DNA of 63,909 nt, the filler included, from an uncultured bacterium (GTDB taxonomy: Bacteria; B130-G9), in NCBI GenBank assembly GCA_965372715.1. It is 3 parts of 3 records of this genome, joined end to end, with 100 filler letters (N's around TTAATTAATTAA, not from the genome) between each part and the next. Parts side by side here need not be neighbours in the genome. Positions count along the whole stretch, not along the records: positions 1 to 23,247 come from CBDVDH010000058.1; 2 more parts are not named here. One strand, given 5' to 3'. Within the stretch, counting starts at the first letter, position 1. Every line of letters starts with the position of its first letter. The translations under genes were made by a program, and so were the position numbers. The notes under the pieces were generated by a model. It was not told the DNA's origin, made no database searches, and saw nothing but the letters and a program-made list of their open reading frames with translations. Positions 828-55,640 of this stretch are shown here, piece by piece.

Positions 828-1843
828 GCTCTGCCCCGAAGACAATCATCCTCAGGGACATGCCGATGGTGCCGGTGGACCGGGGCCGGTGCGCGTTGGT
901 TTTGGCGCTTCAGACAGCGATGAAGTATCTCGGCCAGACCGTTGACTACGACTATCTGATGGGCGTGTCCGGAGCCGCTTTTCTGTTTTACGTGAACCGT
1001 GATCAACCAGTGGTTGCTGAGTGGTGCGAGGCGATGCGCGAGCGTTGGCTTCACATCATTTCGGACGCCCTTGGCCTGGAACTGCGGCTGGTCGATATGG
1101 ACAAGACTGCGTTCGACAGCGATCCCGAAGAGCATTTCCATACTCAATTCGGCAACGAGGTCATCGGCTCTCTCGAGGCGCGTCGTCCGTGCCTTGCCTA
1201 CAGCTGCTTTGAGGGGGGCAAGTGGGACATCATCACCGGCTTTTCTGATGGCCGACTGCTTTGCCGCAGTATCCACAATCCGGTGTCCACAAGCGGTCTG
1301 ATCGACCATATTCAGCCTTACGAATACAACACACTGTGGCCATCGAAGATAATCCTGATCGGTGAGAAGAAGAGGATCACTCCGCGAGTTGACCTGATCA
1401 GAAGGTCGCTCGAGGTTGGCCTCAAGATAGGACGTGGGCTGACGAATGGCCAGGGGCAAAAAACCCTGACCGGTCCTTGCGCGCTGAGCAGGTGGGCCGA
1501 TCTGCTCTGTGAGGAGCCTAATCGGGGCGCCGCGGAGGGACATCAACGGCTCAAGAGGACATTCATCGACTCGCGGCTATCACTGGAGCGGTTTCTCAGA
1601 TGGGTCCAATCTGAGCTCGGCCCGGAGCTCGGCCCAGAGGTGGGCTTCGCGAGGGAGCATTTTGCGAGGTCCTTCGAGATTTTGATGTCAATCGACATGA
1701 CAGATGAGGCGATGTCCGAAGAGGGTTCCAGACTGAGAATCGCCGACGACGTCAGGTCGCTCGAGGGGATCGAACGCCAGGCGTTCAGGCATCTTGAAAG
1801 GGTGCACGAGGGAATGAAGAGGAACTGGCAGGCGCTCGAATGA
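824..1843 (+). CDS. Hypothetical protein, possibly BtrH-N/papain-like N-terminal domain plus helical C-terminal domain
   Basis: 339-aa ORF whose TTG start overlaps the nth stop (TTGA); motif LGQTVDYDYLMGVSGAAF. Confidence 0.65.
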   Translation: MSSAPKTIILRDMPMVPVDRGRCALVLALQTAMKYLGQTVDYDYLMGVSGAAFLFYVNRDQPVVAEWCEAMRERWLHIISDALGLELRLVDMDKTAFDSDPEEHFHTQFGNEVIGSLEARRPCLAYSCFEGGKWDIITGFSDGRLLCRSIHNPVSTSGLIDHIQPYEYNTLWPSKIILIGEKKRITPRVDLIRRSLEVGLKIGRGLTNGQGQKTLTGPCALSRWADLLCEEPNRGAAEGHQRLKRTFIDSRLSLERFLRWVQSELGPELGPEVGFAREHFARSFEILMSIDMTDEAMSEEGSRLRIADDVRSLEGIERQAFRHLERVHEGMKRNWQALE

Positions 1844-2016
1844 ACGATCTCGGATTGAGCCCGCCGGGCAGACAAGCGTCTCACAACGATGGTCCCACAA
1901 GTCGTTTGGTGAGCATTCCGCTGTCCATTCGCAAGACAATGATATATCAGATTCGGTTGATTCTCAAGATCAACGAGCATCGTCTTCATTCGCGACATAA
2001 TCGTCGGAATTGGTCT

Positions 2017-2125
2017 GTAGGGGCGGTGTCTCAGACCCGCCCGCTTTATGGATTAAGAAGAATCCGACGTCGAGAGCTCAGCGATCAATTAGATAGAACG
2101 GGCGGGTCTGAGACCACGCCCCTAC
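2017..2125. repeat. GTAG-type REP doublet (REPIN-like), within a degenerate copy of the MITE at 61233-61496
   Basis: GTAGGGGCGGTGTCTCAGACCCGCCCG ... CGGGCGGGTCTGAGACCACGCCCCTAC; flank ~1890-2016 resembles the reverse complement of 61367-61490. Confidence 0.85.
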
Positions 2126-2128
2126 GAT

Positions 2129-2199
2129 GGCAGGCTGGAAAGCCCGCCACACACCGGCAGGCTGGAAAGCCCGCCCAACACCGGCGGACTGGAATAGCC
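2129..2199. repeat. Tandem 27-bp REP-like units (GGCAGGCTGGAAAGCCCGCC...)
   Basis: Two near-identical copies plus a degenerate third; same unit at 23676-23702. Confidence 0.8.
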
Positions 2200-2201
2200 T
2201 G

Positions 2202-3077
2202 ATGGCAGAAGAGAAAACCCCTGTAATATCGGTTGTCATCCCAGTGAAGGACGAGGCCGATTCGATCGCCTCGGTCATTGGATCAGTCAAAACCGCTCTT
2301 CAGGGTTACGACGGAGCCTACGAGATCGTGGCAGTCGATGACGGCTCCACCGACGGCAGCCGGGAGATAGCGCGGCAGGCCGGCGCCAGAGTGATCTCGC
2401 ACGCGACGGGACGAGGCTACGGCGCCGCTCTGAAGACAGGTATCAGAAACGCACGCGGCGATTCGATTGTGATAATCGACGGAGACGGGACGTATCCGGC
2501 GGAGGCGATTTGTGAGATGCTTGACGGGCTCGACTCGGCTGACATGGTTGTCGGCGCACGGGTCCGCAAGGGCGCAAAGGTCCCCCTTATCAGAAGACCC
2601 GCTAAATGGTTCCTTCAGCGGCTGGCCGGCTTCCTCTCTGGGGTGAAGATCCCGGACCTCAACTCCGGCCTTCGAGCCTTCAGGAGGCGGACTGCGGAGG
2701 ATTACCTTCGTGTGCTGCCGGATAGGTTTTCGTTCACCTCCACAATAACCCTCCTGATGATCGGCGACGGGAAATCGATAAAGTATGTGCCAATCGACTA
2801 CCACAAGCGCTCTGGGAGGTCTAAGATCGTGCCCAGCGACGCCTTCTCATTCCTTCTTCTGATCATAAGAACCATTATGTTCTTCAATCCGCTCAAGTTC
2901 TTCTTCCCTGTCGGACTCGTCGTATTCCTGGTGGGCGCGGTGAAGCTGTCCACCGACTACCTGATCTATGACAGACTTTCATCAACCTCCGTATTGCTGA
3001 TTCTGTCCGCCATCCAGCTCTGGGGCCTGGGCTTTCTGGCAGAACTGGTCTTGTTCCTCGAACAGCGAAGGAAATGA
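2202..3077 (+). CDS. Glycosyltransferase family 2 (DPM1-like) with C-terminal TM helices
   Basis: ISVVIPVKDE, VDDGSTD, GYGAALKTG, DxD (IDGDG), PDLNSGLRAFR; start moved to ATG 2202 because the upstream frame is repeat-derived. Confidence 0.92.
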   Translation: MAEEKTPVISVVIPVKDEADSIASVIGSVKTALQGYDGAYEIVAVDDGSTDGSREIARQAGARVISHATGRGYGAALKTGIRNARGDSIVIIDGDGTYPAEAICEMLDGLDSADMVVGARVRKGAKVPLIRRPAKWFLQRLAGFLSGVKIPDLNSGLRAFRRRTAEDYLRVLPDRFSFTSTITLLMIGDGKSIKYVPIDYHKRSGRSKIVPSDAFSFLLLIIRTIMFFNPLKFFFPVGLVVFLVGAVKLSTDYLIYDRLSSTSVLLILSAIQLWGLGFLAELVLFLEQRRK

Positions 3078-5258: not shown

Positions 5259-6161
5259 GTGAACAGAAGAACATTTCTTAAGCTGGGCGGCATCTCTGCG
5301 CTATGTTCCCTATTTGCGCCTCGTCTAGTGAGGCGAGCCGCGGCGCAGGATGATGAGCCCAATTATTGGATTGGAAGCAGGTATTTCATTCAGGACACCG
5401 TGGAGACGGGCGATTTGCCCGAGCGGATATGGGCCAGGATCGATGGCGCCTGGCACGTCTATCCGTCGCGAGAGCTGCCACAGGAGTTTGTGGACTGGAA
5501 CCTCAGCTCGAGGATTGAGATGCTGGAGGACATGCTGAGTGGCCAGATGGATATAAGCTTCGACGGCCCTCATAACGCGGCGGTTGCGACGGTCTCACGG
5601 TTCGGCCGAGGGGACAGCGACTTTCTGATCAATAATGCGTATAAGGGCATGGGCATGGTCCCCAAGCCGGACCGCATCGAGGAGATCATCGACCGCCTGA
5701 ACATGACTCAGGACCACTCCATGAGCGCGAAGCTTCAGATACTCATCGGCAACTACTCCGATGAGACGATCTGGGACAGGACCAAGCAAGGCTCCTTGGA
5801 GCTTTACAGCTCGTCCGCGTTTGAGACCCACAGCTTCAGGAATCAGATGCGCAATCCCATCTCGACGGTCGTGTTCTTGGATTCCACGTCGTATGAGCTC
5901 AGGACAATCGCGCGGCTCATGCACGCTAACGACCCCACGCTGAACGAAGATGAACGCAAGATGGTCGAATACGTCAATACCGTCCACGCCTACTTCCACG
6001 GCGGGCCGACGGACATCACTACGGCCATTTACTACGTGATCGAGGTCTTCGACAATTCCCCGGGCCAATACAGGGCAGGAAGCAGAGTTGTGCCGCCCCT
6101 GGATAGGGCAAAAGGCCTCAAGCGGCCCGAAAAGCAGAAGCTACAAGCGATCGGATACTAA
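5259..6161 (+). CDS. Tat-exported protein, probable FMN-binding split-barrel (PNPOx-like) domain
   Basis: GGAGG RBS then GTG; twin-arginine signal NRRTFLK...AAA; C-terminal SLELY...THSFRN...NP..TVVF...SYELR...VIEVFDNSP pattern. Confidence 0.7.
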   Translation: MNRRTFLKLGGISALCSLFAPRLVRRAAAQDDEPNYWIGSRYFIQDTVETGDLPERIWARIDGAWHVYPSRELPQEFVDWNLSSRIEMLEDMLSGQMDISFDGPHNAAVATVSRFGRGDSDFLINNAYKGMGMVPKPDRIEEIIDRLNMTQDHSMSAKLQILIGNYSDETIWDRTKQGSLELYSSSAFETHSFRNQMRNPISTVVFLDSTSYELRTIARLMHANDPTLNEDERKMVEYVNTVHAYFHGGPTDITTAIYYVIEVFDNSPGQYRAGSRVVPPLDRAKGLKRPEKQKLQAIGY

Positions 6162-6192
6162 CCCCAGACACGACACTCAGGAGCGAATAACA

Positions 6193-7251
6193 ATGAATAA
6201 GATACGTATTGGATGTTGCACAGTCCTTACTCTAATCGCGTTGCATACAGCTGTTCTGGCGCAGACCCCGCGCGTCGAGGTTACAACCGATAGCGGCGCC
6301 TATTACTTCGGCGACAGCGGTGACGTTATTCTATCGGTGACCAACGGCCCGGAAGAGCATTCCGTGGACTTCTATCTCGCGCTGCTGGGGCCGGATGGGA
6401 TGCCGTATTTCTATCCTGACTGGGCCAACGTGATGCTGCCGGCCTTGAGCGGCGTCGTGCTTCCGCCGAACTTCTCGATGGCGCCGTTCGTCTATTTCAC
6501 GTTCCCCATTCCAGGCAGCGACCCACCCATCCTCTCTGACGGAGCGTTTGCGTTTGCGACGGCGTTCACAGAGGCCGGCTCGACCGACATCATTCAGGAT
6601 ATAAGCTTCGCCTACTTCGATGTCTCATCGGAGTCGCAGGGCTGTCTGCCTGGCATGGTTCGCATCCCGGCCGGAAACTTCACTATGGGCGACGAATCAG
6701 GCGTGGGCTATATAGATGAATACCCTCTGCACGACGTCTATCTCGACTCGTTCTGCATAGACGTCTATGAGTATCCCAACACGGCTGGTTCAGTCCCCGA
6801 CGCGGGCCTGAGCTGGATTGAGGCGGACTCACTTTGCACCCAGCAGGGCAAGTGGCTCTGTTCCGAGGCGCAGTGGGAGAAGGCGTGCCAGGGGCCTTTG
6901 GGCTCAATCTACCCATACGGCGATTGGTATGACAACGTCAGGTGTTGGACTGAGGCGGGCTACAACGACGGTGAGCCAGGCGAATCGGGCCGCAGAAGCC
7001 GATGCGTGAACGTCTATGGCTTGTTCGACATGAGCGGCAACGCATGGGAGTGGGTCGGCGATTACTACGACGCTGAGTATTACTCCTCGTCGCCATACGA
7101 GAACCCAACCGGTCCGTTCGTCGGCAGCGGCAAGGTCATGAGAGGCGGCGCCTGGTTCCATGGAGGCCTCGCCAGTCGATGCTCCTTCCGCGCCGCGTAT
7201 GACCCCGAGCGGGGCCGATTCGGCGCCGGCGTCCGCTGCTGCGCTGATTGA
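6193..7251 (+). CDS. Secreted FGE-sulfatase (SUMF1/EgtB/PvdO family) protein with N-terminal Ig-like repeat domain
   Basis: Signal peptide; MVRIPAGNFTMG, EAQWEKAC, NVYGLFDMSGNAWEWV, RGGAW, RCSFR, GVRCC. Confidence 0.88.
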   Translation: MNKIRIGCCTVLTLIALHTAVLAQTPRVEVTTDSGAYYFGDSGDVILSVTNGPEEHSVDFYLALLGPDGMPYFYPDWANVMLPALSGVVLPPNFSMAPFVYFTFPIPGSDPPILSDGAFAFATAFTEAGSTDIIQDISFAYFDVSSESQGCLPGMVRIPAGNFTMGDESGVGYIDEYPLHDVYLDSFCIDVYEYPNTAGSVPDAGLSWIEADSLCTQQGKWLCSEAQWEKACQGPLGSIYPYGDWYDNVRCWTEAGYNDGEPGESGRRSRCVNVYGLFDMSGNAWEWVGDYYDAEYYSSSPYENPTGPFVGSGKVMRGGAWFHGGLASRCSFRAAYDPERGRFGAGVRCCAD

Positions 7252-7789: not shown

Positions 7790-10039
7790 TCATTTGCTCG
7801 CAGTTACCCGGAACTGGCAAGTCGCCAAGTTCGAGAGATACGTCATCGTGCCCTGCTCAAAAAGCGCGGAATAGGCGCAATACATGCCCGAAGGCAGGCC
7901 CGCCGTGACTGGCGCCTCGAGCAGCGTGTAATCGCTCAGCGAGAACTGGCCCGGTATCCAGCCGGAATAGAACCAGGAATATGCTATCCAGAGACTTGGC
8001 AAGTAGATCAGCGTCCCGTCCGGCAGCATTATCGCAACCGCTAGATCGGCGAACATACCGTCGCCGGGGTTGGCAAGGTCGAGCGTGAGGCGCAGAGTCT
8101 CACCGACGCTATACTTCGAGTCCGAGGTGCAGAGGGTGATCATCGGTGTATGCGGCTCGAAGTACGAGAACACCGCAGCCCCCGCCGCGTGGATCGTGTT
8201 GCCCGCCTCGCCAAAATCCACGACAATCGCGGTCGTCGATGGGCACTGAAGGCCCTCTGTGGAGAGCGACACCCACGTCTCGCCGCCATCTCTAGTATGA
8301 TGAACGCCCTTGTAGCCCGAGATGTAGAAGTCATTGCTGTCGTCCGGGTTGATCAGAATATCATTAACTAGCTCTACCGGGGTCTCGAGCTTCTCCCAGC
8401 TTTGTCCAGAATCAATGGAACGGTAGAGGCCATAATCATACCAAGTATCGCTAGCATAGATGATAGATGAGTCGCTGGGATCAAACTCGATGAGCATCGG
8501 CACAATAGGAATACTCTCAATCAAGAGGAAACTGTCGCCGTAGTCGGTCGAGAGATACAGGCCCTCCGAGGCGCAAACGAAGATGCGATAGGCATCTCCC
8601 GGGTCAATCGCAACGAGGCGGGTAATGAGACTACTGCTGCCGCCGACGAAATTGCCGAGTCTTTGCCAGTTTGAGCCCAGGTTCTCCGTCCTGTAAATCG
8701 CATCAGTCAGCAAAGCGACGTATATCCTGCGAGAGTCGTTGGGGTCAACCACGATATCCTCGCACCAATCCCATTGACCGCCCGGCCAATAAGAGAAGAA
8801 CTCCCAATCCTGTCCTGAATTGTGGGACACCTGGATGATGTCCTCAAAGGGACTGCTCTCATACAGGACGGTTTTATCCCCGGGGTCTTGGGCGAGGCAA
8901 ATTGAAAATATGTCCCTGAAGTAATCGTTGATCTCCCAGTTCAGGCCTGCATCAGTGCTTCTGGCCAGAAGGTCTGAACCGGCGACGACAAGTGTCTCCA
9001 TTCCGGGATCACAGGCAAACAGATATTGCGCGTCCTGCCCGATCATTCCGTTCGACGAGAACTCAGCGTTGGCACAGCCGTCCGTTGAGCGGCAGATCCC
9101 TGAATCCGCGGCGGTTAGGACCTCGTTGCCATCAAACGGCGAGACATCAATGAAAGTGCCGCCATATTCATTGCACCTCAAGGTCCAACTATCGCCGCCA
9201 TCCTCAGAGCAATGCAGCCCGGGCGGATAACAAGCATACATCAACGACGGATCGTCCCGGAAGAAGCAGATGTCATACACCCTAACTCCGACATCAGTCC
9301 AGGTAAATCGCTGCTGATCCCAGCGGTAGAGGCCCCACCCGCTGAGGAAGACATCAGAGGAGTCATTCGGCGAGACATATATCCCCTGTGGCCAGAAATG
9401 CGAGAGGTCTAACCCGTATGGCAGGTCTTCCCAAATGATCCCACCATCCACGGTTCGCTTCGGCGAGCTATACACGCAACCTATCCAAATCGTCTGTGGG
9501 TCATCAGGATCGATGCAGATGGCGGAGGGTCTCGTCCCTTCATATACCATCTCCCACGTCACTCCTCCGTCCAAAGACTGGTATAGCTGACCCAGATCAA
9601 AGGTCGTATAAGTCGCGACAAGAATGTGGTCTGCATCGTTGGGATTACAGGCAATCGCCGACAGCAATTGACCGCCCCAGGGCCCGCTGATGCCCTCCCA
9701 CGTCAGGCCGCCGTCCACGGATTTGAAGAGCGAGTAGTCATCGAAATAGCCGATGTGGGCATAGACCAGCCCTGAAACGGACCTGCTTGCGCAGAAGCAG
9801 AAGCAATAGATGCTATCGGCGGGGAGATCAGGGACGCTTCTTTGCCAGGTCAGGCCACCGTCCTCGGATCTGAAGAAACCGTTCTCTCCGCCTGCATAAC
9901 ACAGCCCCGGGGTGCCGCAGTCGTATTCAACTCGATTGATATAGCCCCCGTACGGGCCGTGGGTCTCCCAGAAGCCCTCGCCAGCGAACGCACAGGCGCA
10001 CATAAGAACCACTGCAAAAGTCAGAATCAAACGAACCAT
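7790..10039 (-). CDS. Secreted BNR/Asp-box (VPS10-like) beta-propeller protein with C-terminal Ig-like repeat domain
   Basis: GGAGG RBS, signal peptide, many SxDGGxTW repeats, C-terminal ~120-aa shared domain. Confidence 0.9.
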   Translation of the reverse strand: MVRLILTFAVVLMCACAFAGEGFWETHGPYGGYINRVEYDCGTPGLCYAGGENGFFRSEDGGLTWQRSVPDLPADSIYCFCFCASRSVSGLVYAHIGYFDDYSLFKSVDGGLTWEGISGPWGGQLLSAIACNPNDADHILVATYTTFDLGQLYQSLDGGVTWEMVYEGTRPSAICIDPDDPQTIWIGCVYSSPKRTVDGGIIWEDLPYGLDLSHFWPQGIYVSPNDSSDVFLSGWGLYRWDQQRFTWTDVGVRVYDICFFRDDPSLMYACYPPGLHCSEDGGDSWTLRCNEYGGTFIDVSPFDGNEVLTAADSGICRSTDGCANAEFSSNGMIGQDAQYLFACDPGMETLVVAGSDLLARSTDAGLNWEINDYFRDIFSICLAQDPGDKTVLYESSPFEDIIQVSHNSGQDWEFFSYWPGGQWDWCEDIVVDPNDSRRIYVALLTDAIYRTENLGSNWQRLGNFVGGSSSLITRLVAIDPGDAYRIFVCASEGLYLSTDYGDSFLLIESIPIVPMLIEFDPSDSSIIYASDTWYDYGLYRSIDSGQSWEKLETPVELVNDILINPDDSNDFYISGYKGVHHTRDGGETWVSLSTEGLQCPSTTAIVVDFGEAGNTIHAAGAAVFSYFEPHTPMITLCTSDSKYSVGETLRLTLDLANPGDGMFADLAVAIMLPDGTLIYLPSLWIAYSWFYSGWIPGQFSLSDYTLLEAPVTAGLPSGMYCAYSALFEQGTMTYLSNLATCQFRVTASK

Positions 10040-10066
10040 AGTGTGAACCTCCTATCTACTCCTCAG

Positions 10067-12376
10067 TTATTCGATTCCGGATACCATCGTGAAAGTCTCG
10101 GCCGCGATGTTCGAGAGCTGCTCGTCGGCGCCCTGCTCATAAAGCGCCGCAAAGACGGTGTAATCGCCCGATGGCAGCCCCGCATCCACCGGCGCCTCGA
10201 GCAGCGTGTAATCCTTCAACGAAAGACGTCGCGGCAGCCAGCCCGAATAGAACGGCGCGCGACTCAGGCCCAATCCCGGCAGATAAACTACAGTGCCGCC
10301 TGGCAGTTCGATCCACACGATGAGATCGACGTTGGACGAGGCGCCGGGATTTGTGATGTTGCAGGACAGGTGGAACATATCGCCGGCCGCATAGACTGGC
10401 TGGGACACCGAAAGCGAGATGAACGGCGTGCCGACGTCGAAGAACGAGAAGACGCCGTAGCCGGTCGCGTAGATAGTGTTGCCCGCGTGGTCGAAATCGA
10501 CGAGAATTGCAGTCGAAACGGGGCAATCGAAGCCGTCCATTGCAAGCGGCAGCCAGACCTCGCCAGCGTCGATCGTGTGGTGCAGGTTCCTCTGCCCTGC
10601 GATGTAGAACTCGTCGCCATCGTCAGGATTGATCGCCATCGCGCAGACCCCGGTAACAGGTGTATCGATTGGCGCCCAGGTCCCTCCGCCGTCGGACGAG
10701 AGACATAGCGCCGGGCTGTTTGCCTCGTCGGTCGTATTTCGTCCGCAGTAGATCGTCTGCGAATCCAAAAGGTCGAACTCGAGGAAGTCAGGCACGAAAC
10801 CGCCAAGATTATTCACCCTGCTGAAGCTCTCACCGTCATTCTCAGAGAGATAAAGCCCCTCGGATGTCCCGACAAAGATGCGGGTCGAATCGCGGGGGTC
10901 GATACGAATGAAGAACGCTTCCGCATAATCCCAAGAGCCTCCGGGATACAGGTTCAGCGCTTCCCAGGATGCGCCGCCATCCGAGCTTCTATAGGTGACC
11001 TCACTGTAGTAGCTGAATCCAGCCAAATAGACCTTTCTAGGCTCTCTCGGATCCACAGCAACGTCATTGGCCCAATACAGATCATAGGGCATCTCGGAGA
11101 CGAGGAACCACGTGGCTCCCATGTCCTCGGACTTGCTGAATGTCCAATAGGACGAGTCAGAAGCATACATGACCCTGGGGTCTGAAGGGCTCTTTGCGAT
11201 GTGCAACCGATACTCGTAGTAGGCGTCAGTAGTCATCGTGGTTGTCCAAGAATTGCCACCATCAACGCTTCTGGCGACAGAATCGTCTCCAAAGCACACT
11301 AGCGCCTGCTTCTCGCTATCACACGCAAGTAAGCCATCTATGTACGTCCCGGAGATGCCATCGGAGGAGAATGTAAGCGTTTCACAACCGTTATCGGAGC
11401 GCCAGACACCGGAATACGGGTCGGCAATTATCACATCGTATGGGTCATAATGGGACACGGCGATAGACCTGCCGGACTGCTCCGCCGAATATATCTGCCA
11501 GCTATCACCTGCATCACCGCTGAAATAGACGTAGTTGTAGTCGCAAACGTAAATCCGGGATGGGTCCGTTGGCACAAAGGCTACATCGAAAGCGTCAAAG
11601 CCAAATAGCTCCCAGCGCGCCTCCAACGCATTCCACTTGAACAACTGGTCGGCGCACAGCAGCACCTCGTCCGAATCGGACGGCGATACGGAGATGTTGC
11701 CCGCATAGCTGACCTTCGAGCCAAGACCGTCCGTCAGGAGCTCCCAAGTTATTCCACCGTCTGTGCTGCGCATTGGGCCCTCTGGATAGCAGCTCATCCA
11801 GACCGTCTCGGAATCGTTCGGATCGACGCAGATGCGGTCAGCGGCGACCGCATACATTATTTGCCAGCTTAAGCCACCATCTAACGAGCGAAAGACCTCG
11901 CCCGCACAGTCGGGGCCTCACCCGCCGCCCTCGGAATATGCCACCCAGACCCGCTCCGGGTCGTTCGGGTCGCAGGCAACAGCGGAAATCACGTCGGTCT
12001 CCGCGGGGACCTGGAGCATCTCCCAAGTAGCGCCCGCATCCTCTGACTTGAAGAGCTCCCACTGGTAGTAGTCGCTAAACGCCGCATAGACGAGGCCCGG
12101 CTGCGCCTGGCACGCGCTAAAAACGTCGCAATAGATACCGTAGTCGCCTATTGGGACGAGTTCGGGAGTGCGATTCTCCCAGGTGACACCGTCGTCGAAT
12201 GACGTATAGAAGCCGCCTTCTCCGCCCACATAGCAGAGTCCGCGCGTGCCGCCGAATTCCACTTCGCGCATGTCCCCGCCATACGGGCCGTGCGTCTCCC
12301 AGAAGCCCTCGCCAGCAAAGCTGAGCTGGAAGAGGCAGAAGATGATTGTTGTCAGGATCAAGACATGCCGATTCAT
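10067..12376 (-). CDS. Paralogous secreted BNR/Asp-box propeller protein with one in-frame TGA at 11918-11920 (selenocysteine/readthrough or nonsense pseudogene)
   Basis: ORFs 11918-12376 and 10067-11857 are in the same frame; joined reading YSEGGG*GPDCAGEVFRSLDGGLSWQIMY; full length matches the 749-aa paralog. Confidence 0.8.
11884..11905 (-). promoter_or_regulatory. Candidate bacterial SECIS hairpin
   Basis: Minus strand GCGGGCGAG-GUCU-UUCGCUCGU, 9-bp stem (3 G-U pairs) starting after a 12-nt spacer following UGA; apex AGGUCU. Confidence 0.4.
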
Positions 12377-12607
12377 TGTGCAATCCTCCTGTTGACAAGG
12401 TTCATATACAAATACACCGAATCTCTAATGCCGAACGAATGTTCCGACATCATAGCATAGCCGAGGCGCCTGATGCAACAGTCGGATGGAGGCCGGGCTC
12501 CGGAGACTCCTCTTACGACAACTCTTGACTTATTCTGACCCGGTTATCGCACGCAAGCTCCTCTGCTTCATCCTCAATCTGTGTAATCTGCGGACAGTCG
12601 CGCTACA

Positions 12608-14899
12608 TCAGTCATTCACCCACGTGGCGAATGAATACTTGTCATCCCGGGCGCCGATCATGAGGTGCGAGCCACCTCGGAGGCTGATGCCGCCGATGAA
12701 CGTGTACGTGCCCGACGGGAGCGCCTCGGCATCGAACGTGAATAGCTGCCACATCTCGAAAGAATGCGCCGGAAGGACGATATCGACCGACTGCATGGTC
12801 GTGCCCCAGTCCGGATAAAAGTAGAACGTCCCGTCATATTCGCACGCCAGCCAAAAGCTGACCGGCATCGTCGTGTACGTGTTGATGAACTCGCCCGAAA
12901 CAAGCAAGGTCTCCCCCTCTCCGCCCTGGGAATGCCCGACAATCGCCTCCAACGTCAGCTTCTGCGCCGCCGGGCCACCATCGCGGAGGCAGCTCAATCC
13001 AGTTTCGGTTCCAATCCACTTGTCCCCGTTGTGGTCGATTAGGACTTTCAGTGGCGAGTTAATCGGGTAGCTGGACGAATAGGCAGGCGCATCCCAGCCA
13101 GGGCATAAACCGTCCTTCTGAGTGATCTTCTCCCAATTGTCCTTCTCCCCGAAATACAGACCATCCGTCGCGGCGCAGTAGAGGCGCCCGTCCGTATCAG
13201 ATTGAGAATGATACACGAAGGCATCTAAAATGCGGGTCCAATGTCCGCCTGGGTAGCATCTGTAAAGACTGCTATTACCAGACAGCAAGGCATATCCATT
13301 GATGTCAAAATCGACTGTATAGCTATACACTGGAACGTCGTCCCGGTCAAGTTGCTCCCAAGTCTCACCTTGACAGGTGGTGAAGCCCTCGAGAGTATGG
13401 GCTTCGATGTCATATTTGGTGAACCAGATCTTATTCTCCGGCCCCATTGCAGCGCAGATCGGTCTTTGAGAGAGAAAGTAATCCTCTGATGGATACCGCT
13501 GCCAATTGGCGCCGTCAAAGCTAAGAACCGCCCCGGTTGCGGTCTCGCCGGGTTCTCGTTTGGCAGTTGAATTCACGAACCACTTCTTGCCGAGGCTGTC
13601 AATCGCCAGCGCATGGGAGGCATCGAGCGGAGAGTTGGACATGTCGAACGTCTCGAAGTCCGAGCCGTCCCACCGCGCAGCGCCCGAATCCGACGTCATC
13701 CAGATATCACCATTGATATCCGAGGTCATATAGGGCCCATGATCATAGATCCCGAACCAAGGCGCCGCAATATGGCCCCAGTTACCCGCTCTTATGACAT
13801 TGACCATCCGGGTGGTGAAATTCAGCGTCCAGACGCCTCCGGATTTATCCTCGAGAATGCCGCTGATTCTAGAGCCCTGAAGGGCGTCCTCTAAGTAGAT
13901 TCGATCAAAGCCATCTCCATCGTAGGATAGAAGACCTGCACCAGGTGTCCCCAAAAGAGATGTACCGTCTGGCATCGCCTCGTATGAAGTGAAGAAGGGA
14001 TTCGGGAAAGCCTGCTTGAAAACGAGGCCGTCCGCCTCCTCAAAGACGGTGATTTCACCATCCTCATAGAGCGCCAGCCAGCCCCACTCGAGGATCCAAA
14101 GCCGATCCGCCCGGTCGAATAACATACCACCCTGGAAATAAACGCTTGCTTCTGACCATATAGGGTCATCGGATACGAGCTGCCAGGCGGCGCCATCGTA
14201 TATGAAGAGCCCCTTGGTGGTTTCATTCTGGCCGATGGCCCAGAGCACATCATGCGCGTCAAGCGCGATCCCACCGCAGTAGAACGAGACCGGCAACTGC
14301 TCGATGTTCTCACCAGAGATTCTGAAGATCCCGCCGCCATGAACCTTGAAATATGCCGTGCCATCCTGAGCGAAGAATGCCGAACCGAAGCCGATATGCC
14401 CATAATTCTCATGGCTATACACGCGCCACTCAGCCCCATCGTATCGGTGTATGCCATACCTGTCCGCTAGCCAGAGGCTCCCGTCCGGGCCGGTGTCAAA
14501 AACCTGATAGCAGTTCCTTATCTCATGCTCGCCGGTGATGTCCCGTACTAATAGCTCCTGCCCCTGGAGTTTAACCTCATAGACGGTTTGAGGATTGCTG
14601 GGATAGGGATAGATGTCGGGATAATAAGGGCCCACATAGAATGTGTCGGGGGCGGCGATCGCCACCCGATGAATGTAGCTGCGAGGCAGGCCGTCATCTG
14701 CCGTGAGCAGCCGCATCTGGCCGTCCTCTACGAGGACCAGACCGCGCGCGGTACCCACGGCGAGCACGCCATCCCGATAGTCAATGGATGTTATGAAGTT
14801 CTGATCCAGGTAGTTCTCTATGGTGTAGTCCTGCGCTGAGGAACACGTCGCAACCGCCAGAACGATCACAAAAACGCATAATGCCAATTGAGCCTTCAT
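12608..14899 (-). CDS. Secreted beta-propeller protein (two-component regulator propeller-type repeats) with C-terminal Ig-like repeat domain
   Basis: GGAGG RBS before MKAQLAL signal peptide; repeats such as TADDGLP, DxxGxxWIGT, NSPL; C-terminal FYFYPDW...LPSGTYTF. Confidence 0.88.
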   Translation of the reverse strand: MKAQLALCVFVIVLAVATCSSAQDYTIENYLDQNFITSIDYRDGVLAVGTARGLVLVEDGQMRLLTADDGLPRSYIHRVAIAAPDTFYVGPYYPDIYPYPSNPQTVYEVKLQGQELLVRDITGEHEIRNCYQVFDTGPDGSLWLADRYGIHRYDGAEWRVYSHENYGHIGFGSAFFAQDGTAYFKVHGGGIFRISGENIEQLPVSFYCGGIALDAHDVLWAIGQNETTKGLFIYDGAAWQLVSDDPIWSEASVYFQGGMLFDRADRLWILEWGWLALYEDGEITVFEEADGLVFKQAFPNPFFTSYEAMPDGTSLLGTPGAGLLSYDGDGFDRIYLEDALQGSRISGILEDKSGGVWTLNFTTRMVNVIRAGNWGHIAAPWFGIYDHGPYMTSDINGDIWMTSDSGAARWDGSDFETFDMSNSPLDASHALAIDSLGKKWFVNSTAKREPGETATGAVLSFDGANWQRYPSEDYFLSQRPICAAMGPENKIWFTKYDIEAHTLEGFTTCQGETWEQLDRDDVPVYSYTVDFDINGYALLSGNSSLYRCYPGGHWTRILDAFVYHSQSDTDGRLYCAATDGLYFGEKDNWEKITQKDGLCPGWDAPAYSSSYPINSPLKVLIDHNGDKWIGTETGLSCLRDGGPAAQKLTLEAIVGHSQGGEGETLLVSGEFINTYTTMPVSFWLACEYDGTFYFYPDWGTTMQSVDIVLPAHSFEMWQLFTFDAEALPSGTYTFIGGISLRGGSHLMIGARDDKYSFATWVND

Positions 14900-15030
14900 C
14901 CCGCACCTCCCTGTAGTTGTGTGAACGAATAACCTGATTTTCTGGTGTTTCTGCCAAATATATCGCACGTTAATATGCAAGTCAACCACCCACACCTCCT
15001 TTTCCCCCTCTCGTCCGCAACAGCGGTCCA

Positions 15031-15193
15031 TTGACAGCCGATCGCATCATCCTCTATATTGACGGCTGGAAAGCACCTTTGCCTTGGAGAGTTAGCGAGT
15101 GACGACGCGGGTTGTTGACGGACACCGGCAGGAGGAAGAGCAGCTACTCGAGCTGAGCATTCGGCCGGGGAGCTTTGCTACCTTCGTCGGCCA
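15031..15193 (+). repeat. 163-bp direct repeat: copy of the ruvB promoter, RBS and first ~31 codons (second copy 16012-16174)
   Basis: TTGACA-N18-TATATT...GGAGAG...CGGGTTGTTGACGGACACCGGCAGGAG...GGCCA present twice. Confidence 0.95.
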
Positions 15194-20290: not shown

Positions 20291-20643
20291 ATTGGCGGTG
20301 GCACGACACCACCACTGATGGACGGCTCGTAAGCTGCAAAGGCGCCGATCCGCACTTCCCGGAGCTCTCAACTAAAAAAAGGCACCACGTCAAGCGCGGC
20401 CAACCAAACCAGCATCTTGCCACGGCTCTCCCACTCGGCCTCTCTCGAGCCAAAACACCCGATGCGACTCTCCGGGGATTCTCTCATTAAGGAGGAGCTT
20501 GACCCAAAGACTCAGCTCTGATAACAGTTCAATCGTCAACATTCGTCCGGGTACAAACCGATCGCTCTGCCGCCTGCCCAGTCGGGCGCCGGTAACTGAG
20601 GTTACCTCTGGCGACGGGTCGAGCAAAGAGGGTCTGCCGGGAA

Positions 20644-21165
20644 GTGGAATACGTAAGAAGAATGTCCAAGGGCTTCTTCATAGCCGCTTACTTAGGTGGT
20701 CTTGCCCTGAGTGTTCTCGTTCCCGCCCTGGCCATCACTGTCGGTTTCGAGTGGCTTTTTCTAGCCCTGATTCTTGGCCTGTTTTTTCGCCTCTTCTCCT
20801 TCTTCGCGATGATAATCTTCATCTACGACATGTGGCGAGTGATACAGGACGGCCATGCCCGCACTACACCCGGGATGGCCGTCGGGCTGCTCTTCGTGCC
20901 GGTCTTCAACCTCTACTGGGTTTTCCAGGCGGTGTGGGGACTCGCGAAGGACTTCAACGCATATTTAGCCCGCTATCACGTCAACGCGAAGCCGCTTTCG
21001 GAGAAACTATTCCTGGCTTACCCGGCATCTGTGATTCTCTCCCTATACTACGGGCCGCACCCGATTCTCGGTGTTCTGGCAGGGCTGACCGTCCTGGTTC
21101 ACGGCACCATCATCATCTACAAGGGTTGTGACGCGGCGAACGTCGCACGGAATATCGCCACATGA
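20644..21165 (+). CDS. Membrane protein (DUF4328-like)
   Basis: Hydrophobic helices; IYDMWRVIQDGHARTTPGMAVGLLFVPVFNLYW; alternative start ATG 20662. Confidence 0.8.
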   Translation: MEYVRRMSKGFFIAAYLGGLALSVLVPALAITVGFEWLFLALILGLFFRLFSFFAMIIFIYDMWRVIQDGHARTTPGMAVGLLFVPVFNLYWVFQAVWGLAKDFNAYLARYHVNAKPLSEKLFLAYPASVILSLYYGPHPILGVLAGLTVLVHGTIIIYKGCDAANVARNIAT

Positions 21166-21773
21166 TGGGAAGAGTATCAAAGCGCTTCTTCGTCTGGTCA
21201 ATCGCAGGCGGCTACGGCTTGGCCATTCTCCTCCTGATCGTCGCCACGTTTTCTCTCCTTGAACATAAGCCAAAAGCAGCGATCCAATGGGTGTTTGTGG
21301 CGCTGGTACCGTTGGCCTACAGCTGCATCGTCTGGCTCTGCCTCATATATTCGATGTGGCAAGGGATACAGGACGGACACGCCAGAGTAGCTCCCGGAAA
21401 GGCTGTCGGATTCCTATTCATCCCCTTTTTCAGCCTATACTGGGTGTTCCGAGCCGTAGCCTGTTTCCCGAAAGATTACAGCAACTTCATAGGACGCCAC
21501 GAGCTGCACGCCGACAGGCTAGAGCCTCACATTTTTGTCGCCTACTCCGTCCTTGCTTGCACTCAGTTTCCCACCGCAGTTCCCCTGTTGGTTATCAGGT
21601 GCATACTGGCATCGCGAATATGCGACGCGATCAACGCCATTCCCGAGTTGGGGACTATTCTGAATGGCGAGCCCGACGGCCAGCGCCCGATATTCAAAGC
21701 AAAAGCCTACAAGCCTAGACGAATCGAGCCCGGTCCGTTCGATTTTGGCGCTCACCTGAGGGACGACGGATAG
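21162..21773 (+). CDS. Membrane protein (DUF4328-like), tandem paralog
   Basis: IYSMWQGIQDGHARVAPGKAVGFLFIPFFSLYW; ATGA overlap with the previous gene. Confidence 0.8.
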   Translation: MMGRVSKRFFVWSIAGGYGLAILLLIVATFSLLEHKPKAAIQWVFVALVPLAYSCIVWLCLIYSMWQGIQDGHARVAPGKAVGFLFIPFFSLYWVFRAVACFPKDYSNFIGRHELHADRLEPHIFVAYSVLACTQFPTAVPLLVIRCILASRICDAINAIPELGTILNGEPDGQRPIFKAKAYKPRRIEPGPFDFGAHLRDDG

Positions 21774-23247: not shown

Positions 23248-23347
23248 NNNNNNNNNNNNNNNNNNNNNNNNNNNNNNNNNNNNNNNNNNNNTTAATTAAT
23301 TAANNNNNNNNNNNNNNNNNNNNNNNNNNNNNNNNNNNNNNNNNNNN
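23248..23347. other. Assembly gap / artificial contig linker
   Basis: 100 positions of N with central TTAATTAATTAA. Confidence 0.98.
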
Positions 23348-45430: not shown

Positions 45431-45456
45431 TGGCTGCAGTGTGCAAGATGCGTCTT

Positions 45457-45501
45457 GTAGGGGCGGTGCTTGCCTACAAGGTTACGGGCGGGTCTGAGAC
45501 C
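45457..45501. repeat. Degenerate GTAG REP fragments
   Basis: GTAGGGGCGGTGCTTGCCTAC and GGGCGGGTCTGAGACC. Confidence 0.6.
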
Positions 45502-45554
45502 TGACAATTATACGCATATTCGAAGTTGATGGGGCAGTTTGCTGGGCTCTATGT

Positions 45555-45654
45555 NNNNNNNNNNNNNNNNNNNNNNNNNNNNNNNNNNNNNNNNNNNNTT
45601 AATTAATTAANNNNNNNNNNNNNNNNNNNNNNNNNNNNNNNNNNNNNNNNNNNN
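45555..45654. other. Assembly gap / artificial contig linker
   Basis: 100 positions of N with central TTAATTAATTAA. Confidence 0.98.
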
Positions 45655-45763
45655 CTACGGTTCGCCGCGCGGCGAATGGTCCCCCTTCGGGGAACCGAAA
45701 CGCAGCATCACGTCAACCCTAATTCCACTTTTTTCTTGACCAAAACCAAACCCCGGAGCCAAC
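45655..45763. mobile_element. End of a non-autonomous element (shared with 52493-52574)
   Basis: CCCCCTTCGGGGA...ACGTCAA...AATTCCACTTTT...AAAACCAA.CCCCGGAGCCAAC at both sites. Confidence 0.6.
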
Positions 45764-45994
45764 CCGGTCCGCGCCATAAGGTGGATTCACATAAATCGTC
45801 CTGAAGTCCCATTTCTCCCTAAGTCCGTCCCTCTCTGGAAGATGGAATTCCGTATCTGCGTTGACAATCGACCATTCGTTAGAGCATGGGTCTAGCGCTA
45901 TGCGCCCTCCCCAAAGCCTCTTCACAGCTTCAACGTACTTCGGTGGCGTGCACCAGTTGTTGCTCAAGGAGTTGACAGTTCTTCCTGCTGTCAC
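45719..45994 (-). pseudogene. Truncated N6-adenine DNA methyltransferase (phage-Dam-like)
   Basis: W.TP, LDPCS, DGL..W, YVNPPYG; reads into the element end just after NPPYGADR. Confidence 0.8.
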
Positions 45995-46064
45995 CCCAAT
46001 ATCTCCTTCCAGTTCTTAGAGGCCAGCAACGAGAGATCACCTCTCAGTTGGGCAATGCTATGCC

Positions 46065-47620: not shown

Positions 47621-47624
47621 TACC

Positions 47625-53630: not shown

Positions 53631-55640
53631 ATGCGGTATGGAAGTATGTTTCTGTCGTTTGTATTGATGTTTGGCGCGGCTGTTTGGGCCGACGCGGACT
53701 CGTTTTGGCCGATGTTTCAACGCGATCCGGGGCACACGGGTCTTGCGCCTGTCTCAACGGCCGAGAATCTTCAATTGCTTTGGGAGCTCGATGTAACGAC
53801 TGTGAACCCGATGGGGGCTTCACATCTGCTGATGGGTAATGACGGGTGTCTCTGGGTGGTTGGGACGAAGATACTGGCGGTCTCTCCTGACGGTCAGGTG
53901 GACGTCGAGTTTCCCTTTCCGGCTGACTTAGCGGGGTCCTTCAGGGGCTGGCCTGCGCCTGTTGTTCTCGGCGACGGCGCGCTGGTTGTTCTGGCGCACG
54001 TCCGCGTCGAGGGCCAATTCAGGCCCCATCTGTTTGCCATCGAGCCCTGGGGCGCGCTTCGCTGGACGCTGCCCCTGGAGGGTCGCGCCGGGGATTCCCT
54101 GCTCACGCTTGGGCCGCAGGGCGCCATTTACGCAGCTTCCGAAAACTACCTCTACAAGATATCACAAGAGCCGCAAATCCAGTGGTCTTACCAATGTGAG
54201 GCCGAGGTAGCGACCATCCCCGCCGTCGCGCAAGACCGGTCCATACACTTCGGCGCGAAAGACAACGCTCTTTACTGCCTCTCATCTCAGGGGTCCCTGA
54301 ACTGGACTTTCCAACACCGTAACACGTTGCTGGCTGCGCCGACTGTCGATGCGGACGGAAGGGTTTATCTCCCGGTCTCAGGCGAAGCGTTATACTGCCT
54401 AAACAGCGATGGCTCCATTGTGTTTTCCTATCCGAACCTAGGCATGTCTTATGCCAGCCCTGTCTTGCTGGCCGATGGCTCCGTGGTTTTCATGGGCTCC
54501 ACGACGGGACCTGGAGTTGAGGAAGTAATATGCCTCGACGGCAGCGGCGCAGAGATCTGGAAGGTGGGTCTGGAGACGAACCAGAAGCCGCAGACAAGCC
54601 CGGTTGCGGACGCGGACGCCAACGTCTATATAGGATACTTCTTGTACGAAGGCGAGCCACCCAACTACGTCTATCATCGCCGCCTGGCTCGGATCACCCC
54701 GACAGGCTCGTACGAGGAGTTCCACGTCGATTCGGGCGGAACCAAAACGACCGCCGGCGGGTTTTGCATAGGACAAAACGGGACAGTATATGGCTACAAC
54801 GGCAACTTGCTCTGCGCCTTCGGGGGCGCCGTTCAATTGCTCAATGTGGGCGTCTCGACGGGCCTCGTGGCCTATGACCTGGACATCGGTTGGATACGCG
54901 CAGCATCAGTCCAGATCGCCAACCCACTTTCGGACATGAACCTAGACTGCTACGTGGCATATCGAAGGGCGGGAAGCGACGAGCTGTTCTTCTACCCGTT
55001 TTGGTCCACGGACCCGGGCAACTCTGCGCTTCAGTTCAGGCCCCTGCCCGCGGGCGCGCAATTCCCCAAGATCGAGCTGATACATCTTCAGGAGCGCACT
55101 TTGGAGCCGGGGCAATACGAATGGCTCGCCGGGTTCTTTGAGCCTGGGACGTTTGAGCCCGCGTGCGAGATAGCCTCGTGCGCGTTCACCGTGTTGGCCC
55201 AACCCATTCGAGGCTCCGACTTCGGGCGTACGAAGGAGGCCGAGACTGGCAACGGCATAGCTGTTCAAGAGACGCCGCTGACGGTACAACTCTGGACGGA
55301 CAAGCTCGATTACACCGCAGGCGAGACGCTTCACCTCTCGCTGAGCATTGATAACCAGGGCTTCGGTATGCCCTTTGACCTCTACATCGCGGCCACGATG
55401 GAGACCGACCCGAGCGGGACGCTCTACTTCTTCCCGACCTGGGCGACAAACCCGAGCTTTACGAACATCTCATTCTTCCCGCTGGCGCAGGGCGCCTCGC
55501 TTCCGGACTTAACGATCATGCACCTTCCGCTTTGGGAAGGTCTGCCGTCGGGCGACTACACATTCCTGGCGGCCTTTTTCCTCACGGGCAGATTTGAGCT
55601 GGCCAGCGAGATCGCCGAGGCGAGGTGGACGCTGATGTAG
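53631..55640 (+). CDS. Secreted PQQ-like (BamB-type) beta-propeller with two C-terminal Ig-like repeat domains
   Basis: Signal peptide, WPMFQRD..HTG, repeats LY.L...G.L.W and P.V..DG; two copies of the shared domain. Confidence 0.9.
   Translation: MRYGSMFLSFVLMFGAAVWADADSFWPMFQRDPGHTGLAPVSTAENLQLLWELDVTTVNPMGASHLLMGNDGCLWVVGTKILAVSPDGQVDVEFPFPADLAGSFRGWPAPVVLGDGALVVLAHVRVEGQFRPHLFAIEPWGALRWTLPLEGRAGDSLLTLGPQGAIYAASENYLYKISQEPQIQWSYQCEAEVATIPAVAQDRSIHFGAKDNALYCLSSQGSLNWTFQHRNTLLAAPTVDADGRVYLPVSGEALYCLNSDGSIVFSYPNLGMSYASPVLLADGSVVFMGSTTGPGVEEVICLDGSGAEIWKVGLETNQKPQTSPVADADANVYIGYFLYEGEPPNYVYHRRLARITPTGSYEEFHVDSGGTKTTAGGFCIGQNGTVYGYNGNLLCAFGGAVQLLNVGVSTGLVAYDLDIGWIRAASVQIANPLSDMNLDCYVAYRRAGSDELFFYPFWSTDPGNSALQFRPLPAGAQFPKIELIHLQERTLEPGQYEWLAGFFEPGTFEPACEIASCAFTVLAQPIRGSDFGRTKEAETGNGIAVQETPLTVQLWTDKLDYTAGETLHLSLSIDNQGFGMPFDLYIAATMETDPSGTLYFFPTWATNPSFTNISFFPLAQGASLPDLTIMHLPLWEGLPSGDYTFLAAFFLTGRFELASEIAEARWTLM

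Follow-up and report, generated by a model that had tools for sequence, protein, structure and literature searches.

Is the in-frame TGA that interrupts a gene for a secreted beta-propeller a stop signal, or does it encode selenocysteine (Sec)? The question arises on the minus strand of the window (the whole stretch of DNA analysed, 63,909 nucleotides in length), which comes from an uncultured Coatesbacteria-like bacterium. An earlier note had proposed the gene as a candidate new selenoprotein, with a SECIS-like hairpin following the TGA. Our analysis favours Sec: the gene probably represents a new selenoprotein family that has a GH74-like double-propeller fold and uses the known mechanism of Sec incorporation.

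The interrupted gene and its relatives

With the TGA taken as a sense codon, the frame at 12376..10067 (-) comprises 769 codons, and translation table 11 splits it into an ORF of 152 aa (11918..12376) and one of 596 aa (10067..11857). In agreement with the earlier description of these ORFs as one frame broken by a single TGA in a U-x-x-x-C setting, translation of 12451..10067 gave a single frame, MNRHVLILTTIIFCLFQLSFA...GIE, with this TGA as its one internal stop; Cys157 stands four residues past it. The TGA-bearing loop had also been described as longer than in the paralogue, and it exceeds that of the adjacent gene at 7790..10039 by five residues (Table 1). The tandem gene pair recurs in L002, a locus from the Coatesbacteria MAG JAFGIT01, where a gene at 11585..13954 comes after the TGA gene.

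Table 1. Coordinates of the interrupted gene, its parts and its neighbour, counted along the window
Feature	Position	Strand	Remarks
Whole gene	10067..12376	(-)	Secreted Asp-box (BNR / Sortilin-Vps10-like) tandem beta-propeller plus C-terminal domain of ~130 aa
Predicted Sec-type signal peptide	12314..12376	(-)	MNRHVLILTTIIFCLFQLSFA, then GEGFWETHGPYGG; inferred from reading the sequence
Codons S-E-G-G-G, directly 5' of the stop	11921..11935	(-)	Terminal SEGGG in 7/7 N-terminal pieces
In-frame TGA, codon 153, proposed Sec codon	11918..11920	(-)	Context AYSEGGG, the TGA, then GPDCAGEVFRSLDGG; TGA also in L002 at 9817..9819
Codons G-P-D-C	11906..11917	(-)	Double as the spacer of 12 nt; contribute to the lower stem
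Upper stem-loop, SECIS-like core	11884..11905	(-)	GCGGGCGAG / GUCU / UUCGCUCGU; overlaps codons A-G-E-V-F-R-S
Extended hairpin, A of UGA to D-G-G-L codons	11871..11918	(-)	MFE prediction
Adjacent paralogue, 749 aa	7790..10039	(-)	42% identical; without TGA; without the 5-residue loop

The product matches the Pfam families Sortilin-Vps10 (PF15902, 84.9 bits against a cut-off of 33) and BNR (PF02012, 46.6 bits against 27). Its AlphaFold model has a mean pLDDT of 84.2; the signal peptide region, kept in orthologues and paralogues alike, is modelled at low pLDDT as an N-terminal helix (residues 2-20). The best solved structures found by Foldseek were GH74 xyloglucanases (e.g., 2cn2, 6p2o and 5fkq; E 4e-29, TM 0.59-0.65, ~770 columns), and the family profile matched GH74 chains at E 1e-31, repeat to repeat and out of register. 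As a criterion for GH74 we took two seven-bladed propellers in tandem whose intervening cleft carries a pair of catalytic Asp residues. Like GH74 and other Asp-box propellers (Sortilin/Vps10, Ycf48), the protein has tandem beta-propellers with Asp-box (SxDxGxxW) repeats; unlike GH74, it carries an extra C-terminal domain that belongs to no Pfam family. Identity to the GH74 chains is only 14-18%; the model suggests that the protein probably adopts a GH74-like double-propeller fold.

A search with the N-terminal part returned seven proteins of 152-155 aa among 14 candidates, the window's own piece counted, at 57-86% identity to the query. The first frame ends at exactly ...SEGGG, in the same alignment column, in seven of eight orthologues, whose N-terminal parts are 57-87% identical; the orthologous ORFs that stop at this place are P0122-P0127. 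The TGA itself was seen in the two of the seven that were read as DNA (the window and L002), while the other five, P0122-P0126, are known by the end of the ORF only. Two of the seven N-terminal pieces come from contigs of sizes 10206 and 4345, matching the C-terminal pieces P0003 and P0004. In all seven assemblies with the stop, the gene is annotated as two truncated ‘hypothetical proteins’.

Conservation extends beyond the stop. L002 continues with G-P-T-C, its GGC, CCC and TGT codons being identical to those of the window, and the stretch GPxCxGEVFRSxDGGxSW, including the Asp-box, is kept in frame 3' of the TGA. The eighth orthologue, L001 from the MAG CAYZPW01, reads through without a TGA: it has Met at the site, SERQG in place of SEGGG and G-R-S-S in place of G-P-x-C. 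L001 has thus lost the TGA, the partner Cys and the GGG motif together, which fits a functional Sec/Cys unit that was lost whole. Cys occupied the Sec column in none of 11 aligned relatives without the TGA (10 full-length and one N-terminally short, from a search that gave the best 150 of 22690), and in TGA-free relatives the loop is absent or variable at this column. Besides the TGA-type window gene and L002, no Sec or Cys loop occurred in 13 subfamily sequences. Four further loci (L003-L006) were considered as TGA-loop genes and set aside as paralogue-type genes or fragments without the loop, L004 and L005 being judged from the search table. The orthologue alignment, to which the earlier note had looked for TGA or Cys at this site, therefore gave a divided answer, with TGA present in the window and L002, Met in the only non-TGA orthologue and Cys in none.

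The hairpin downstream of the TGA

Folding reproduced the stem-loop that had been drawn in the earlier note. A 12-nt spacer, GGCCCCGACUGU, separates the TGA from an upper stem of 9 bp, three of them G-U pairs, with a GUCU loop that starts 21 nt past the TGA; the hexamer AGGUCU starts at 20 nt. As a 29-nt piece, this upper hairpin folds at -12.2 kcal/mol (z -2.9; 5 of 200 shuffles equally good), and the extended hairpin reaches -24.3 kcal/mol over 51 nt (z -3.06; 2 of 200). A similar extended hairpin is predicted in L002 (-19.9 kcal/mol), and a 17-nt core, GGCGAGGTCTTTCGCTC, is identical in the window, L002 and L001. With up to three mismatches, the core matched nothing in the window other than the element itself, against a chance expectation of 0.5.

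How much of this structure is selected as RNA? Read by hand between the window and L002, the extended stem shows two one-sided changes that keep pairing (G10A and U38C) and four broken pairs at its edge; no compensatory double change was found between these two TGA-bearing DNA sequences, and the core is invariant. Equally stable 51-nt folds follow 8 of the 2138 TGA triplets on both strands of the window, and 26 of the 2138 pass a simple bSECIS-like test. When synonymous codons were redrawn with the amino acids fixed, equal folding arose in 86 of 2000 redraws for the window and 164 of 2000 for L002. Because of these TGA-scan and redraw counts, the hairpin by itself is only weakly beyond chance. 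The GC-rich codons that specify G-E-V-F-R-S account for part of it. Caution on this overlap with the constrained GEVFRS motif, voiced from the start, was justified: L001, with Met and without the TGA, still has the core hairpin. Since L001 and the window are closely related (of 535 same-residue codons, 376 are identical), the time available for the hairpin to decay has been limited. It is orthologue conservation, not the hairpin alone, that carries the case for a selenoprotein.

Comparison with the SECIS element of Escherichia coli fdhF, the gene for formate dehydrogenase H, shows both shared and differing features. The fdhF sequence has the UGA, 11 nt, and then GGUUGCA-GGUC-UGCACC, in line with the earlier note (an upper stem about 11 nt past the UGA and an AGGUCU apex). 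In both genes a hairpin of some 40-48 nt comes directly after the UGA, the A of which opens the lower stem; the upper stem starts after 11 nt in fdhF and 12 nt in the window, the apical AGGUCU hexamer is common to the two, and each has GGCC soon after the UGA. The differences are that the apical loop begins at 21 nt past the UGA in the window and at 18 nt in fdhF, and that the predicted loop is GUCU closed by a G-U pair rather than GGUC. The upper stem of the window, at 9 bp, is also longer and richer in G+C. An fdhF-type SECIS is characterised by an apical GGUC/AGGUCU at a fixed distance from the UGA and an important bulged U in the upper stem; no bulged U is predicted in the window stem. The proteins themselves are unrelated, a secreted propeller as against a cytoplasmic molybdoenzyme. 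Thermodynamic z-scores were discarded as a discriminator, being uninformative either way: tested likewise, the authentic SECIS of fdhF gives z +0.10.

The bSECIS model, as given in excerpts of PMC13188914, allows a loop of 3-9 nt, a stem of 4-16 bp and a spacing of 16-37 nt, with a G in the first two loop positions and an MFE of -7.5 kcal/mol or lower. Set against these excerpted rules (PMC13188914), the window hairpin agrees throughout (4-nt loop, 9 bp, G then U, 21 nt, -12.2 kcal/mol), and so does that of L002, with a 7-bp stem. Given that 26 of 2138 TGAs pass a comparable test, the model is permissive, and a fit to it is necessary and far from sufficient.

The gene also resembles predicted selenoprotein families (GOS, Olavius symbiont, deep-Sep, BSepDB) as these are described in parts of PMC12013277 and PMC13188914, namely in its conserved in-frame TGA, in TGA-bearing homologues elsewhere and in a downstream bSECIS. 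Predicted bacterial families are reported, in the consulted part of PMC12013277, with Cys-containing homologues; unlike them, the propeller had no Cys homologue in the searches made (best 150 of 22690). The terms BNR, sortilin, propeller, Ycf48 and sialidase are absent from the main text, supplements excluded, of PMC13188914, PMC13326102 and PMC12013277, recent reviews and a database paper in which no secreted propeller of the Asp-box or GH74-like type is named. Literature searches found nothing that links Coatesbacteria to selenocysteine and nothing on bacterial BNR selenoproteins with a SECIS, and for prokaryotic beta-propeller selenoproteins they gave only items that their titles and the starts of their abstracts marked as unrelated.

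Selenocysteine and its alternatives

Purifying selection acts on both sides of the TGA. Between the window and L001, dN/dS is 0.22 before and 0.26 after it; between the window and L002 the values are 0.16 and 0.14, and over the first 20 codons past the TGA dN/dS is 0.27-0.29. The next in-frame ATG, GTG or TTG lies 21 codons past the TGA in the window and 41 in L002, with no start codon between the TGA and the conserved Asp-box in either. Judged from these sequences, translation must run past the TGA, because there is no nearby start, the Asp-box stretch is conserved and dN/dS is low. Conservation at synonymous sites peaks just 3' of the TGA: at codons +1 to +16, 10 of 12 same-residue codons are identical between the window and L002, as against 175 of 394 in the whole gene, a level matched in 3 of 383 sliding windows. 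Upstream of the TGA the count is 2 of 9.

Translation past the TGA would be explained equally well by programmed or leaky UGA read-through without Sec, in which a standard residue is supplied by a near-cognate or suppressor tRNA while the hairpin slows termination, giving both a 152-aa and a full-length product. This reading also has on its side that none of selA, selB, selC and selD was seen in the 64-kb window or in the relatives' loci, and no sel family was found among the 39 window ORFs with NCBIfam, a result that speaks for the window and is silent on the rest of the genome. ARAGORN found no tRNA genes in the window or in L001-L006, and Rfam gave no matches at gathering thresholds in the window, L001, L002, L004 or L005. 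L002 is flanked by RHS-repeat, glycosyltransferase, polysaccharide-export, O-antigen-ligase/TPR and HD-domain genes, and by no sel genes. The lack of a Cys homologue among the aligned relatives points the same way, as do the Met and unrelated loop of L001, which show that the fold does not depend on the residue at this site. Against this stand the fit of the hairpin to the bSECIS rules, including the G-U at the loop start and the spacing, and the Cys four residues on, which is kept with the TGA and lost with it. Moreover, conserved hairpin-dependent UGA read-through other than for Sec is not known as an established mechanism in bacteria. We therefore regard read-through without Sec as unlikely.

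Could the TGA instead be a true stop in a conserved split gene, yielding an exported N-terminal fragment of 152 aa and a C-terminal protein with its own translation start? Gene callers made the same split in seven assemblies, and the arrangement is conserved. However, the start-less stretch of 21 (window) or 41 (L002) codons is conserved as protein (dN/dS 0.27) and includes the blade's Asp-box; a separate C-terminal piece would have no signal peptide, and in the model the break interrupts a beta-hairpin within one of the propeller blades. L001, the intact orthologue, consists of one chain, as does every paralogue. We give this explanation a low probability, lower than that of read-through.

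It is hardly credible that the TGA reflects an artefact or decay, be it an error in sequencing or assembly, a TGG>TGA nonsense mutation of recent date or genome-wide reassignment of TGA: the single in-frame stop itself and the draft state of the assembly, with its N runs, are what would suggest it, and error, pseudogene and altered code are ruled out by a stop conserved at the same position in seven independent assemblies at 57-87% identity, by purifying selection 3' of the stop and by the ordinary use of TGA. TGA ends 21 of the 37 family-annotated ORFs in the window and is an ordinary stop in this genome, where table-11 ORFs match full-length family profiles. The nonsense change or base-call error that the earlier note had held open is excluded, since the first ORF ends at ...SEGGG in seven independently assembled orthologues, with the TGA found in two different genomes, those of the window and L002. 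With TGA read as U, the only other join of two sizeable ORFs, at 20499..21773, was uninformative as a sign of Sec use, having no Pfam family either joined or split, and the gaps at 45300-48500 and 51900-53700 held no convincing TGA-interrupted genes.

Sec incorporation, as proposed in the earlier note, thus draws on the conserved G-P-x-C and Asp-box, purifying selection, synonymous conservation and a bSECIS-fitting hairpin, while the Met of L001 and the lack of Cys at the site in the aligned TGA-free relatives count against it. We infer that Sec is the inserted residue and that this hairpin is the element used. In the Sec reading, the UGA at codon 153 would be decoded by the ordinary bacterial route, with the stem-loop that starts right after it recruiting SelB carrying Sec-tRNA(Sec), and the signal peptide would export the product. 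The model suggests that this product would fold into a GH74-like pair of Asp-box beta-propellers and a C-terminal beta-sandwich, with Sec in a short insertion loop rich in glycine (SEGGG-U-G-P-x-C), placed between two strands of a blade in the N-terminal part. In this position Sec153 could join Cys157 in a selenenylsulfide, or the two could serve to bind a metal or a chalcogen.

Implications for Coatesbacteria and for selenoprotein searches

A bolder and rather doubtful extension is that this is an extracytoplasmic selenoprotein family that nowhere has a counterpart with cysteine and occurs only in Coatesbacteria-like bacteria from anoxic sediments, and that its Sec-x3-Cys loop, a new insertion in a GH74-like propeller blade, does what sulfur cannot. 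Under such a cysteine-free family, the pair might act as a selenenylsulfide staple or redox switch that holds extracellularly under strongly reducing conditions; alternatively, it might offer a metal or chalcogen substrate a selenolate ligand at the face of the propeller. Sec decoding would then be evidenced in this candidate phylum for the first time.

If confirmed, the gene would bring a family with a new structural class, the secreted Asp-box/GH74-like propeller, into the selenoproteins, and the pairs of truncated proteins in the seven assemblies would each be one gene. It would also be an unusual case without Cys homologues, of a kind that search strategies based on Cys/Sec pairs miss, which suggests that selenoproteins are under-counted by those screens. 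It would, finally, place Sec decoding in the Coatesbacteria, a candidate phylum known only from metagenomes.

A reading frame interrupted by one TGA

Minus-strand translation of 12451..10067 gave a single frame of 769 codons, beginning MNRHVLILTTIIFCLFQLSFA and then GEGFWETHGPYGG and ending in ...MVSGIE, with one internal stop in the context AYSEGGG-TGA-GPDCAGEVFRSLDGGLSW. The two ORFs described in the earlier note are thus one interrupted frame, as it had proposed. Its U-x-x-x-C motif was also recovered, with a Cys at the fourth residue past the TGA followed by an Asp-box (SxDxGxxW), and the loop is indeed longer than that of the neighboring paralogue, which is five residues shorter exactly there.

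Features of the window and of the compared loci
Feature	Coordinates	Strand	Remarks
N-terminal ORF of TGA gene	11918..12376	-	152 aa, table 11
TGA	11920..11918	-	sole internal stop
C-terminal ORF of TGA gene	10067..11857	-	596 aa, table 11; begins at first ATG past TGA
Paralogue without stop	7790..10039	-	directly downstream of TGA gene; 42% identical
Third, distant propeller protein	12608..15031		upstream of TGA gene; weak Reg_prop match
Propeller locus, window	7790-15031	-
Propeller locus, L002	9358-13954
TGA, L002	9817..9819		FSEGGG-TGA-GPTCEGEVFRSTDGG
Orthologue locus, L001	4918-12310		contig stops 91 nt past gene
~120-aa C-terminal domain	10070-10480	-	at end of both propeller paralogues
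~120-aa domain, PQQ-like propeller protein	53631..55640	+	C-terminal; BLASTP E 2e-13; weaker second copy
~120-aa domain, FGE-sulfatase-domain protein	6088..7251	+	N-terminal; E 3e-4
~120-aa domain, L003 (paralogue-type locus)	1170-2345	-	among loci listed for the domain
ORF pair separated by TGA	20499-21131, 21162-21773	+	same frame; one TGA and 30 nt between; no known family
Oxidoreductase gene cluster	23728-30089	-	flavin/Fe-S
Paired 44-base N runs	23248-23347, 45555-45654

As a query, the read-through protein retrieved only a small subfamily, after which identity dropped sharply to generic Asp-box propellers (~25%). The sole full-length orthologue (P0002, 769 aa) is 73% identical, two matches are C-terminal pieces (P0003 and P0004), and paralogue-type proteins are about 42% identical. 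An exhaustive HMMER search agreed: among the best 150 of 22690 matches, P0003 had an E-value of 2e-244 and four cluster representatives 1e-183 to 4e-138, followed by a next match at 7e-75. With the 152-aa N-terminal piece as query, 14 candidates included 7 proteins of 152-155 aa (57-86% identical, own piece included), all of which terminate in ...SEGGG at the same column. The stop is confirmed as TGA at the DNA level in the window and in L002, a locus from a Candidatus Coatesbacteria MAG; for the other five orthologues it is known as an ORF end. Since P0125 and P0003 share a contig size of 10206, and P0126 and P0004 one of 4345, both halves occur together there too.

The earlier note had proposed comparing orthologues for TGA or Cys versus Trp at this site. 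L002 carries TGA, but the orthologue locus L001, whose loop is identical to that of P0002 (SERQG-ATG-GRSSEGEVFRS), has Met, and no Cys was found at the Sec column among the aligned relatives. Such an absence of Cys homologues is atypical for selenoproteins, according to PMC13188914. In L001 the loss of the stop coincides with that of both the partner Cys and the GGG motif. Around the former TGA (L001 10457-10474 vs window 11906-11935), ten codons reading SERQGMGRSSE versus SEGGG-stop-GPDCA have diverged far more than the remainder of the gene (73% identical), which suggests relaxed constraint, or local loop replacement, following a putative loss of Sec.

Translation across the TGA

Past the TGA, no in-frame ATG, GTG or TTG occurs for 21 codons in the window or 41 codons in L002, and this start-less stretch is conserved as protein and holds the blade's Asp-box. 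Between the window and L001, dN/dS was 0.22 before and 0.26 after the TGA; between the window and L002, it was 0.16 and 0.14. Over the first 20 codons past the TGA it was 0.27-0.29. Together, these results rule out a split gene with independent initiation, a pseudogene and a sequencing error, and with them the alternatives raised by the earlier note (a TGG>TGA nonsense change or a base-call error). TGA terminates 21 of the 37 family-annotated ORFs of the window, and full-length family profiles are matched by ORFs called under table 11; both observations exclude a reassigned genetic code. To the extent that sequence comparison can show it, recoding of the conserved UGA is established.

The hairpin after the TGA

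Identical codons for the same residues in the window and L002 number 175 of 394 over the whole gene, 10 of 12 in +1..+16 past the TGA and 2 of 9 in the 16 codons before it; just 3 of 383 sliding windows attained 10/12. Synonymous divergence (pS) was 0.48 in the first 20 codons versus 0.72 in the remaining C-terminal part.

Folding reproduced the proposed 12-nt spacer and 9-bp stem, GCGGGCGAG/GUCU/UUCGCUCGU (6 Watson-Crick and 3 G-U pairs, 4-nt loop; -12.2 kcal/mol as a 29-nt piece). The same region as a 51-nt piece forms a longer hairpin rooted at the A of UGA; its energy of -24.3 kcal/mol corresponds to z -3.06, and 2 of 200 shuffles fold equally well. The bSECIS model, as given in PMC13188914, has an apical loop of 3-9 nt, an upper stem of 4-16 bp, a G within the first two loop positions (usually then G or U), a UGA-to-loop distance of 16-37 nt and an MFE <= -7.5 kcal/mol. 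Both the window hairpin (GUCU loop, 9 bp, 21 nt, -12.2 kcal/mol) and that of L002 (GUCU loop, 7 bp, 21 nt) conform to all four of these rules. The E. coli fdhF element (NC_000913.3) reads UGA-CACGGCCCAUC-GGUUGCA-GGUC-UGCACC, in keeping with the layout given in the earlier note (stem about 11 nt past UGA, AGGUCU apex). This apex is common to fdhF and the window; the upper stem starts 11 nt past UGA in fdhF and 12 nt in the window, and the loop at 18 and 21 nt, whereas the window hairpin is without a predicted bulged U.

The chance level of the hairpin varies with the control. Equally stable 51-nt stretches follow 8 of the 2138 TGA triplets of the window, and 26 of these triplets pass a simple bSECIS-like test; synonymous redraws with amino acids fixed fold as well in 86 of 2000 cases for the window and 164 of 2000 for L002. 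Given these controls, the earlier caveat on overlap with the GEVFRS motif was right, much of the stem coming free with the G-E-V-F-R-S codons. The genuine fdhF SECIS gave z +0.10 by the same shuffle test, so stability discriminates poorly in either direction. A 17-nt core, present in just one copy in the window, is the same in L001 and L002. Its retention in the TGA-less L001 weakens the putative link between hairpin and Sec; L001 is close to the window, with identical codons at 376 of 535 same-residue positions and a dS of about 0.7, and has lost the lower stem (GGCCCC with GGYGGC). The extended stem showed no compensatory double substitution between the window and L002; read by hand, pairing is kept at two one-sided changes and four peripheral pairs are broken.

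Protein, host and recoding mechanism

With 84.9 bits for Sortilin-Vps10 and 46.6 bits for BNR, the read-through protein passes both Pfam cut-offs. Its AlphaFold model (15-sequence alignment; mean pLDDT 84.2, pTM 0.72) places residue 153 between predicted strands 143-148 and 159-164 of an N-terminal blade, within a short loop whose pLDDT is about 67. GH74 xyloglucanases are the top solved-structure matches (E 4e-29, TM 0.59-0.65, 14-18% identity). At the sequence level the family profile also matches GH74 chains (E 1e-31), Sortilin and Ycf48, but these alignments pair repeat with repeat and are out of register. We do not class the protein as a GH74 enzyme, a classification that would turn on the catalytic Asp pair. 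The last ~130 residues are modeled as a beta-sandwich without a Pfam family. The ~120-aa domain (consensus ...Y..GD...L...I.N.G....DL.....P.G...Y.P......F.....), also without a Pfam family, appears to be a secreted-protein module specific to this lineage.

In both the window and L002, the TGA-type gene is directly followed by a TGA-less paralogue; L001 keeps the upstream neighbors. The first piece of the window (1-23247) equals in length the longest contig (23247) given for the window's own proteins. Because the window joins three contigs, genes beyond 23247 need not be physical neighbors of the TGA gene. The oxidoreductase cluster encodes a glutamate-synthase-small-subunit-like protein with an HdrA2-like tail, an HdrA/sarcosine-oxidase-alpha-like protein and a ThiO-like oxidase, with sub-threshold matches to 'diclust_near_Sec' and YgfK. 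Such families include selenoproteins in other anaerobes; no in-frame TGA was seen in this cluster. Joined, the ORF pair at 20499-21773 gives 424 aa with no Pfam match and no evidence of recoding; its first ORF, rich in Arg, Ser and Pro, is perhaps not a real gene.

For the RuvB encoded beside the locus, identity is 89% and 85% to proteins named Candidatus Coatesbacteria in NCBI records, and at most 67% to matches named for other phyla. In the literature searched we found no paper pairing Coatesbacteria with selenocysteine, and we saw no sel gene or tRNA-Sec in the window or fetched loci. The Sec incorporation proposed in the earlier note is favored by the conserved UGA, coding past it and a bSECIS-fitting hairpin, but has no Cys homologue on its side. 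Selenocysteine is the best-supported mechanism for this UGA, and probably the correct one. The gene would then represent a new selenoprotein family using a known bacterial mechanism, its novelty judged against the main text of selenoproteome papers. If true, this selenoprotein is unusual in being secreted, in having a propeller fold and no Cys homologues, and in belonging to a candidate-phylum host.
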